From: Escherichia coli
Lineage (GTDB): Bacteria > Pseudomonadota > Gammaproteobacteria > Enterobacterales > Enterobacteriaceae
Assembly: GCF_965641715.1 (NCBI RefSeq)
Contig: NZ_OZ282461.1
DNA length: 1,541 nucleotides
Strand: one strand, 5' to 3'
This document shows, one piece after another, positions 1 through 1,340 of this stretch. Position 1 is the first letter of the stretch. Every line of letters starts with the position of its first letter. The notes under the pieces were generated by a model. The model saw nothing but the letters and a program-made list of their open reading frames with translations. It was not told the origin of the DNA and did no database searches. Position numbers and translations under genes: made by a program.

Positions 1-37
1 GTGCTCAATGTGGCTTCCGGTTCTCTTCCGCTTCCTC

Positions 38-80
38 GTCGATTCGCTCGCTACGCTCGGTCATCGACTTGCGGCGAGCG
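38..80. other. Hairpin-rich segment resembling what I recall as the primosome-assembly-site (single-strand initiation) region downstream of the pMB1/ColE1 origin
   Basis: Seen in sequence: cttccgcttcctcg (26-39) and ...cgctcgctacgctcggtcatcgacttgcggcgagcgg... parallel pBR322 cttccgcttcctcgctcactgactcgctgcgctcggtcgttcggctgcggcgagcgg (recalled). Dyads gtcgat (38-43) with atcgac (63-68), and cgctcgc (45-51) with gcgagcg (74-80), are preserved despite substitutions. Function is inference. Confidence 0.4.
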
Positions 81-386
81 GTGTCACCTCTCGCATGTTG
101 TCGGTGATCCCGTTGTTGTTCTTTCGGGGATGAGTCGTCAGATAGCCCTTCAAACACGCTCAGAAGCTCTCAGACGCACGAAACGGGTTTTAGATGCCCG
201 TCAGGGCATGGAAGGCGCGAAAAACGCTTACAGAGGCTCTCAGGAGGTCAGGCGCGCCGATACCCCTAACCAGGGGCTTTCAGGTCGCCAGGAACCGCGC
301 CAGCCCCCTGCAAAGCCCATTTGCACGGTACAGGCAGCCACTCGGTTGGTAGGTGGTCGTAGACCGTCGGTGTTACAGCGATGGGG

Positions 387-576: not shown

Positions 577-1056
577 TCAATTTGAAAACATGGCCATGAT
601 TCGGCGCTGAATATCACCGTCTTTGTTGACCAGTGTTTTAGTGACAAACGCCGCGTAGTTTTTAGATGTGTTGTATCCCTTCCAGACTTCATGTGGATCC
701 AGTGCATACGCACAAACCTTACCGGCAACAGGAATTCTGACTAACGCGTTTTTTGATTCTAAGTAGTTGAGCCAGCGCTTAATTGTGCTTCGGCTAACAC
801 CCAATTTATCTGCTAAAAACTGCTGATCGGCAACGACAGCACCGCATGAGGGATCTATGTGCTCAGCTAAAAACGAGTAAAGCGGTATTGCTACAACTCC
901 CTGCTTGTCCTTCGACAGTTCTCGGATCCTTTCCCAGCCCTTCTGATAAACCTGGGTGAATGGGCCGTTATTTTTCGGATCTGGTTCCGATTCTTTGTTT
1001 AATTTTTCCAGTTCTTTTAGACGCTTTTTTCGCTGCTCTTCAGTCCCGATATACAT
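577..1056 (-). CDS. Putative plasmid replication initiator or DNA-binding regulator with a helix-turn-helix motif (RepA-like, as in small cryptic enterobacterial plasmids); 159 aa
   Basis: Seen in sequence: ORF from the track, ATG at 1056-1054 and TGA stop at 579-577 on the minus strand. A GGAG Shine-Dalgarno (plus-strand ctcc, 1064-1067) lies 7 nt upstream of the ATG. The segment ...VADQQFLADKLGVSRSTIKRWLNYLESKNALVRI... (approx nt 736-834) has the pattern of a helix-turn-helix. The N-terminus is lysine/glutamate-rich. It is the only long ORF in the AT-richer block and is preceded by a repeat-rich region. Inference: Rep-like function from motif and context; a vague recollection of pKL1-type 1.5-kb plasmids with a small RepA is not verified. 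Confidence 0.75.
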   Translation of the reverse strand: MYIGTEEQRKKRLKELEKLNKESEPDPKNNGPFTQVYQKGWERIRELSKDKQGVVAIPLYSFLAEHIDPSCGAVVADQQFLADKLGVSRSTIKRWLNYLESKNALVRIPVAGKVCAYALDPHEVWKGYNTSKNYAAFVTKTLVNKDGDIQRRIMAMFSN

Positions 1057-1275: not shown

Positions 1276-1299
1276 GGGGTGTCGGGGCGAAGCCCTGAC
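1276..1299. repeat. Left arm of a 24-bp inverted repeat (ggggtgtcggggcgaagccctgac); the arm is also an internal hairpin
   Basis: Seen in sequence: the reverse complement of 1504-1527 is ggggtgtcggggtgaagccctgac, matching 23 of 24 positions. Within the arm, gtcggggc and gccctgac are themselves near-complementary. Confidence 0.7.
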
Positions 1300-1340
1300 A
1301 CAGTCACGTAGCGATAGCGGAGTGTATACTGGCTTATTCC
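1276..1340. other. ColE1/pMB1 bom-like origin of transfer (oriT) with putative nick motif CTGG/CTTA at 1329-1336
   Basis: Seen in sequence: ggggtgtcggggcgaagccctgacacagtcacgtagcgatagcggagtgtatactggctta closely resembles the pBR322/pMB1 bom segment gggtgtcggggcgcagccatgacccagtcacgtagcgatagcggagtgtatactggcttaac, recalled from memory. Established knowledge: the ColE1 relaxase MbeA nicks within CTGG/CTTA. The nicked strand was not determined here. Confidence 0.6.

Follow-up and report, generated by a model that had tools for sequence, protein, structure and literature searches.

The stretch of DNA analysed here, referred to as the window throughout (1541 nucleotides), contains close to its left end a hairpin of about 55 bases that, to judge from the sequence, is a true relative of the PriA priming site of ColE1 and pBR322, that is, the origin-proximal PriA-dependent primosome assembly site also called ssiA, n'-pas or rriA. 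Positions 28–81, together with flanks extending over 13–92, probably represent a phiX174-type PriA-dependent ssi, orthologous to ColE1/pBR322 ssiA and present as a portable module on a Rep-dependent plasmid. The type of element is already known, and the accepted picture of PriA-dependent priming is left unchanged; it is the carrier that is a different kind of replicon. Mildly new are the comparative structure, an inner stem that is absent from the textbook sites, the cassette-like behaviour of the alleles, and the fixed orientation of the element beside rep. We found no description of a pas in pKL1 in the open literature.

The window corresponds to the whole source sequence and matches end to end, at 94–96% identity, complete E. 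coli plasmids of 1564–1566 bp typed as Col(MG828). Its size of ~1.5 kb, its one HTH RepA gene and the inverted repeat/operator that precedes this gene identify it as an E. coli plasmid of the pKL1/Col(MG828) type in its entirety. The rep gene on the minus strand (577–1056) is the sole real gene of the plasmid. In pKL1, oriV with its Rep sites is located upstream of rep (PMC3832669), and by analogy the repeats at 1132–1182 may represent the Rep operator/oriV of the present plasmid. The plasmid is not a ColE1-type replicon, since an Rfam search of the window found no RNA I, even at E <= 1, while the same search recovered RNA I of ColE1 with 73.8 bits. A comparison of the window with ColE1 found no similarity to the RNA II region either, and the sole Rfam match in the window is a chance hit to proV at 730–838. 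The features on which the following text relies are these:

13–90, minus strand (probable): the full ssi-like element, as matched by the covariance model of the family.
28–81, minus strand: the core hairpin, homologous to the core of ColE1 ssiA/n'-pas (ColE1 1362–1309), as delimited by the alignment and the consensus fold.
28–35: 5' arm of the outer stem, CCGCTTCC, pairing with 73–81; the minus strand reads GGAAGCGG and includes GAAGCGG.
38–43: 5' arm of the inner stem, GTCGAT; five of the six pairs change on both sides.
44–62: the conserved 19-nt loop, TCGCTCGCTACGCTCGGTC, which includes a mini-stem (G50-C56 and C51-G55).
63–68: 3' arm of the inner stem, ATCGAC, defined by covariation and the arm-swap test.
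73–81: 3' arm of the outer stem, GGCGAGCGG (GG.CGAGCGG), defined by covariation and the consensus fold.
82–92: a pyrimidine-rich 3' flank, TGTCACCTCTC, of a type conserved across plasmid groups in the alignment.
100–137: an extended flank similar to the flank of ColE1-like and IncX4 plasmids in the alignment.
577–1056, minus strand: the HTH rep gene (pKL1 RepA-like; 159 aa, HTH_36 domain; PMC3832669).
1132–1182: an inverted/direct repeat upstream of rep, made of a pair of 25-nt repeats/palindromes.
1277–1336, plus strand: a ColE1-type bom/oriT with the nic motif GTATACTGG/CTTA, 97% identical to ColE1 1521–1462 and including GTATACTGGCTTA.

The first-pass annotation had likened positions 26–100 to the primosome assembly region of ColE1, and this likeness is real and correctly placed: window positions 23–82 align with ColE1 1367–1308 at 84% identity (blastn, E 2e-11). 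A covariance model built from 30 homologs has a single match in the window, at 13–90, with a score of 90 bits (E 3e-22), compared to 86 bits for ColE1, where the element is also present in a single copy. The two sites are of equal length, and they share the frames TTCCGCTTCCTCG and TGCGGCGAGCGG, which are invariant in the whole alignment and enclose two variable blocks with the conserved centre CTCGCTACGCTCGGTC between them. When compared with the pMB1/pBR322-type rows, the window differs at 13 of the 54 core positions, with 12 of these differences falling into the two blocks (39–46 and 63–69) on either side of the centre. A weaker similarity to the flanks of ColE1-like and IncX4 plasmids extends to about position 137 (one match spans 26–137). 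Within this flank, the DnaA box that ColE1-like plasmids have beside ssiA, between it and the origin, TTATCCACA, aligns with TTGTTGTTC at 113–121 of the window, so, unlike ColE1, the window has no neighbouring DnaA box, and the DnaA-dependent back-up loading of the helicase described for pBR322 would be unavailable at that position.

The element is by no means restricted to the 1.5-kb plasmids. At least 5000 plasmid records match window positions 1–140, most of them with 80–90% identity and on mobilizable ColE1-like plasmids, and other carriers include IncX1, IncX4, IncI2, IncF, RepL-type, MOBQ and Arsenophonus plasmids. What has been known as ssiA of ColE1 would thus be a portable module that is not specific to ColE1, residing here on one of the commonest tiny plasmids of E. 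coli.

Comparison of the homologs also provides the secondary structure of the element, which the classical pBR322 site displays only in part. The alignment comprises 30 distinct homologs, 16 of them retrieved by similarity searches and 14 by a pattern scan of species-representative genomes, from which many random GC-rich matches and vector contaminants were filtered out by means of the conserved core. The pattern used for the latter 14 rows had GCTTCCTCG and TGCGGCGAGC fixed, so their invariance is partly a matter of construction, while the covarying columns lie outside the pattern. The structure tested consisted of an outer stem (28–31/78–81), an inner stem (38–43/63–68) and the mini-stem (50–51/55–56). 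Across the 30 homologs, 78% of the cells in these pairs are paired, as opposed to 11–45% once the partners are offset by one to three columns; double-sided changes affect eight of the 12 pairs (42 cells), and none of 500 shuffles reached the observed covariation score. RNAalifold independently recovered the same rod and lengthened the outer stem to 28–35/73–81.

The changes concern all three helices. In the outer stem, the pairs 28-81 and 29-80 exhibit the double changes CG to GC and CG to UA (five rows each), turning CCGC/GCGG into GTGC/GCAC or CTGC/GCAG. The inner stem reads GTCGAT/ATCGAC in the window and CTCAT/ATGAG, GTCTG/CAGAC, CCCGT/ACGGG or CTCAC/GTGAG elsewhere. The pair 50-56 of the mini-stem is GC in 26 rows and AU in four, is never broken, and has switched from G-C to A-T in combination with two distinct inner stems. 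For the inner stem we additionally employed a mix-and-match test of the arms, which sidesteps the problems of alignment at indels: arms combined with their own partners reach a mean of −4.27 kcal/mol and those combined with arms from other variants −2.88 kcal/mol, a value as low as the former being obtained in none of 20,000 permutations. The arms of the window form a duplex of −7.2 kcal/mol with each other, better than with any of the 18 non-self partners. A conserved stem-loop in the size range of ~50–80 nt, as would be formed by an ssi in a single strand, is hence indicated by covariation in three helices, and the compensatory changes bear out the earlier proposal that selection acts on structure rather than on sequence.

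The same proposal included the statement that the dyad symmetries are retained relative to pBR322, which is correct for the outer stem only; here the sequence is identical to that of pBR322, so retention of the stem is uninformative. The inner dyad is absent from ColE1 and pMB1 (pBR322), with arm duplexes of only −1.3 and −2.1 kcal/mol, whereas the window has a perfect stem of 6 bp. The inner stem is thus shared by the window with several other lineages and was not retained from pBR322; it is not required for the activity of a PriA site as such, because the characterised ColE1/pBR322 sites do without it.

The folding energy is unremarkable against shuffled sequences (z −1.0 to −1.4 on either strand of the window, about 0 for the ColE1 homolog), and the window sequence adopts the comparative fold with low stability, at −5.8 to −7.6 kcal/mol versus −12.5 kcal/mol for a competing minimum-energy fold, which is about 5 kcal/mol stabler. 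The latter (45–51/74–80 and other pairs) is built from invariant bases; having no compensatory pairs, it was rejected as the conserved structure and may be an alternative conformer.

The strand on which the element would be active can be deduced from the geometry of ColE1. The RNA/DNA switch motif of ColE1 is located at 1197–1179 and RNA I at 645–749, both on the minus strand, and from these positions it follows that RNA II and the leading strand extended from it by Pol I run along the plus strand from 1197 through 1308–1367. The homolog of the window element consequently begins 111 nt and ends 170 nt past the switch, in the part of ColE1 where one strand is displaced; the displaced strand is complementary to the one aligning with the plus strand of the window. 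By this geometry, the stretch would correspond to ColE1/pBR322 ssiA. The sequence AAGCGG on the active strand is a consensus of plasmid n' sites, and the window has GAAGCGG on its minus strand, running from 34 to 28, just as ColE1 has it on the strand displaced. The active strand of the element would therefore be the minus strand, the equivalent of the active strand of ColE1 ssiA. The first-pass annotation had placed PriA-dependent sites in this region of ColE1, and the literature agrees: it puts n'-pas/ssiA in the stretch homologous to the window segment, at a position where extension by Pol I exposes the site and recruitment of PriA allows DnaB and primase to initiate the lagging strand (PMC3167613, PMC3640518), and it credits PAS sites close to the origin of pBR322 with the ability to serve as origins themselves (PMC8246471). 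Annotations of ColE1-family plasmids moreover show an ssi stem-loop, about 82 nt in length, next to oriV (PMC5935869, PMC2831885). The window element is thus homologous to an experimentally defined site.

A second GAAGCGG occurs on the plus strand at 1258–1264, within a hairpin at 1246–1272 that we considered as a second primosome site and rejected; relatives keep the hairpin and a T-run but not GAAGCGG, and the structure looks like a terminator. Specifically, a hairpin with a 12-bp stem is followed by TTTTTT on the plus strand (1246–1278 in total), and the relatives have retained both with other sequence (GGGTGTTGCG/CGCAACGCCC).

The position of the element relative to rep is constant as well. 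In eight Rep-type loci (the window, L007, L009, L014, L016, L143, L144 and L145), which represent several unrelated Rep families and include, besides the window, MOBQ, IncX1, IncX1/X3, IncX4, RepL-type and Arsenophonus plasmids, rep is encoded on the opposite strand and the ssi is situated about 200–720 nt upstream of the rep start, always in the same orientation. In the window, the repeats at 1132–1182 are separated from the ssi by 387–440 nt across the junction of the circle, as compared with the 111–170 nt between the switch and the site in ColE1. This constancy would be compatible with a minus strand laid bare when DNA is unwound from a Rep origin, and a fixed orientation of the module beside rep could help to predict the direction of forks in replicons that are as yet uncharacterised.

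We envisage that the minus strand, carrying GAAGCGG, would become single-stranded during vegetative replication and fold into a rod-like hairpin of ~54 nt made of the outer stem, the inner stem and the conserved 19-nt loop. PriA would recognise the hairpin and, with PriB, DnaT and DnaC, load DnaB and primase, such that synthesis would be primed on the minus strand. This could happen in two ways. In an R1-like scheme, unwinding from the Rep origin 390–440 nt away would expose the site on the template of the leading strand of the fork leaving rep; the primer would start that leading strand, and the DnaB loaded would drive a fork back through the origin and rep. In a ColE1-like scheme, a fork coming in from the 100–560 side would expose the site on its lagging-strand template. 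We slightly favour the R1-like scheme, because the same rep-to-ssi orientation recurs in the seven other Rep-type loci. GC skew was uninformative on fork direction over the 1.5 kb of the window, as the mosaic GC content dominates.

According to Masai & Arai, an ssi signal some 400 bp downstream of the Rep-dependent oriR of plasmid R1 reportedly starts the leading strand after unwinding by the helicase, an arrangement with which the window agrees in distance and in the geometry of the strands. The R1/R100 ssiA differs, however, in being of the G4 type, which has three adjacent stem-loops and is recognised by primase alone, and is probably unrelated in sequence to the window element, which belongs to the sequence family of ColE1 ssiA; signals of the phiX174 and G4 types were reportedly shown to be interchangeable (Masai et al. 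1990, cited in PMC3167613). Another site similar in form is the complementary-strand origin of phiX174 (the n' site), a ssDNA hairpin of ~55 nt at which PriA recognition leads to assembly of the primosome (PMC5778457, PMC8246471). The likeness concerns size and rod-like shape, and the phiX174 site differs in belonging to a phage whose genome is naturally single-stranded.

Vegetative replication is probably a likelier setting for the priming than plasmid transfer; the first-pass annotation had proposed that the site primes complementary-strand synthesis after transfer or during replication. A priming site is needed by ssDNA entering a recipient, the plasmid family is typed as mobilizable, and the bom/nic homolog, 97% identical to that of ColE1, lies 228 nt away from the ssi (95 nt in ColE1) in the same order and orientation as in ColE1. 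We nevertheless regard the use of the site in the recipient after mobilisation via this oriT as unlikely. The mob genes of ColE1-like loci sit beyond bom, on the side away from the ssi, and by the usual rule mob genes enter the recipient last; from this, and from the nick position that we take to be at CTGG/CTTA, the transferred strand would be the plus strand of the window. The strand equivalent to that of ssiA is the minus strand, and priming after transfer is disfavoured for this reason. In ColE1, a second, unrelated site (ssiB) reportedly occupies the transferred strand (Nomura et al. 1982). The covariance model detects no second, ssiB-like copy of the element on either strand of the window. 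In addition, the copies of the element on IncX, IncI2 and IncF plasmids adjoin rep or stability genes, not an oriT.

Some further observations concern the surroundings of bom. The plasmid has no relaxase or mob gene, so its mobilisation would be possible only in trans. Positions 1504–1526 repeat the left end of the bom homolog (1277–1299) in inverted orientation, with 22 of 23 bases in agreement; the two copies bracket the nic site and a palindrome with 18-bp arms (1460–1497), while ColE1 has a single copy. Two exact 12-mers, TTTCGGGGATGA (121–132) and GCCCGTCAGGGC (196–207), are colinear with ColE1 (L001) at about 1530–1640, to the left of bom, where ssiB presumably lies; their spacing is 62 nt versus 76 nt in ColE1, and the score of the pair (24, with a shuffle maximum of 23) is borderline.

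Another possibility is that the element serves mainly as a cis-acting determinant of copy number, multimer control or incompatibility, whatever its priming activity. This idea draws on an analogy with the very small enterobacterial plasmids pHW126, pIGRK and pIGMS31, which likewise have, outside the minimal origin, a palindromic ssi-like accessory element beside repeats upstream of an HTH rep, the likeness to the window being one of layout. In pIGRK and pIGMS31, the ssi beside the conserved region and iterons is dispensable for replication, its loss resulting in a higher copy number and multimers, and ssi-containing fragments of pIGRK and pHW126 exert incompatibility (PMC6854812; bioRxiv 10.1101/2022.12.05.519187). 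These phenotypes are, however, those of plasmids thought to employ a rolling-circle or unusual mode of replication and are not established for pKL1-type plasmids. Divergent alleles that are independent of the rep module, as described below, would fit diversifying selection. On the other hand, priming is compatible with a role in copy control, and failed initiation of the lagging strand could itself cause phenotypes of this kind. As the main role of the element, we consider this improbable.

Two alleles of the ssi exist in the 1.5-kb family: the type present in the window and a second one, longer by 2 nt, with CCCAC ... GCTGGGGC. Between 39 and 70, more than a dozen positions distinguish the two, within near-identical flanks, and the alleles (L137, L141 and L142 versus L138, L139 and L140) assort independently of the rep module. 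Such a pattern points to recombination or gene conversion confined to some 32 nt, and to tolerance of both alleles. A good inner stem is maintained in either case (−7.2 and −5.7 kcal/mol), and across plasmids there are at least seven mutually complementary pairs of inner arms. One may speculate, with little confidence, that the inner stem and loop constitute an exchangeable, diversifying cassette within the invariant frame. If the ssi were an incompatibility/copy determinant, as in pHW126-like plasmids, the stem variants could act as specificity alleles by which co-resident small plasmids avoid competing or recombining at the same priming site.

It could also be argued that the segment is an inert relic, inherited along with bom from an ancestor of the ColE1-like kind and now functionless in the plasmid. 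Replication of the plasmid is driven by its own Rep, with RNA I and RNA II absent, the bom–ssi block retains the order found in ColE1, and the adjoining DnaA box has decayed. Against this stand the invariant frame and the stems that change only with compensation across replicon types that do not share bom, the maintenance of a good inner stem by two divergent alleles within the 1.5-kb family, the conservation of the ssi flanks (94–97%, above that of the rep gene), and the constant orientation relative to rep in the eight loci. We deem a relic quite unlikely, and a priming site in current use remains our preferred interpretation.

A coding role of the segment, for a small protein, is very improbable, and so is a role as RNA element or terminator: public records do annotate ORFs over the element (at 8–133 on the plus strand, a 'replication protein' of 41 aa; at 5–157 on the minus strand, a 'hypothetical protein' of 50 aa; one or the other in CP134904.1, CP054464.1 and NZ_CP075637.1), but alleles of 61, 62 and 63 nt put both ORFs out of frame, one relative (L138) has a stop at codon 2, neither ORF has a match in a protein-family search, and the element itself has neither an Rfam match nor any promoter-like or terminator-like site. 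As the alleles shift the frame, these annotations are spurious, and the present analysis offers a probable function for a stretch that public records leave blank or mis-annotate.

The plasmid as a whole is a mosaic. Among eight relatives, the non-coding backbone (1–560 and 1281–1541; GC content 0.56–0.62) is conserved at 92–99%, whereas the rep gene with its operator (560–1280), which is AT-richer (GC content 0.42–0.47), is conserved at 45–80% only, and different rep modules appear to have been swapped onto one backbone. Within the backbone, the region 140–560 is highly conserved and non-coding, with direct repeats at 152–173/222–243 and nested inverted repeats at 324–443, and has no promoter-like site and no Rfam match. 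It is carried by about 800 plasmid records, and its part at 141–241 occurs also on plasmids of 24–46 kb and in Arsenophonus and Sodalis.

The same plasmid type is found as a 1626-nt scaffold in an assembly labelled 'Streptococcus parasanguinis', and origin segments of the pMB1/pUC type are present on short contigs in assemblies from Cutibacterium, Paracoccus, Streptomyces and Mycolicibacter (together the loci L089, L031, L046, L057, L022, L036 and L063). These sequences most likely represent contamination or vector carry-over.
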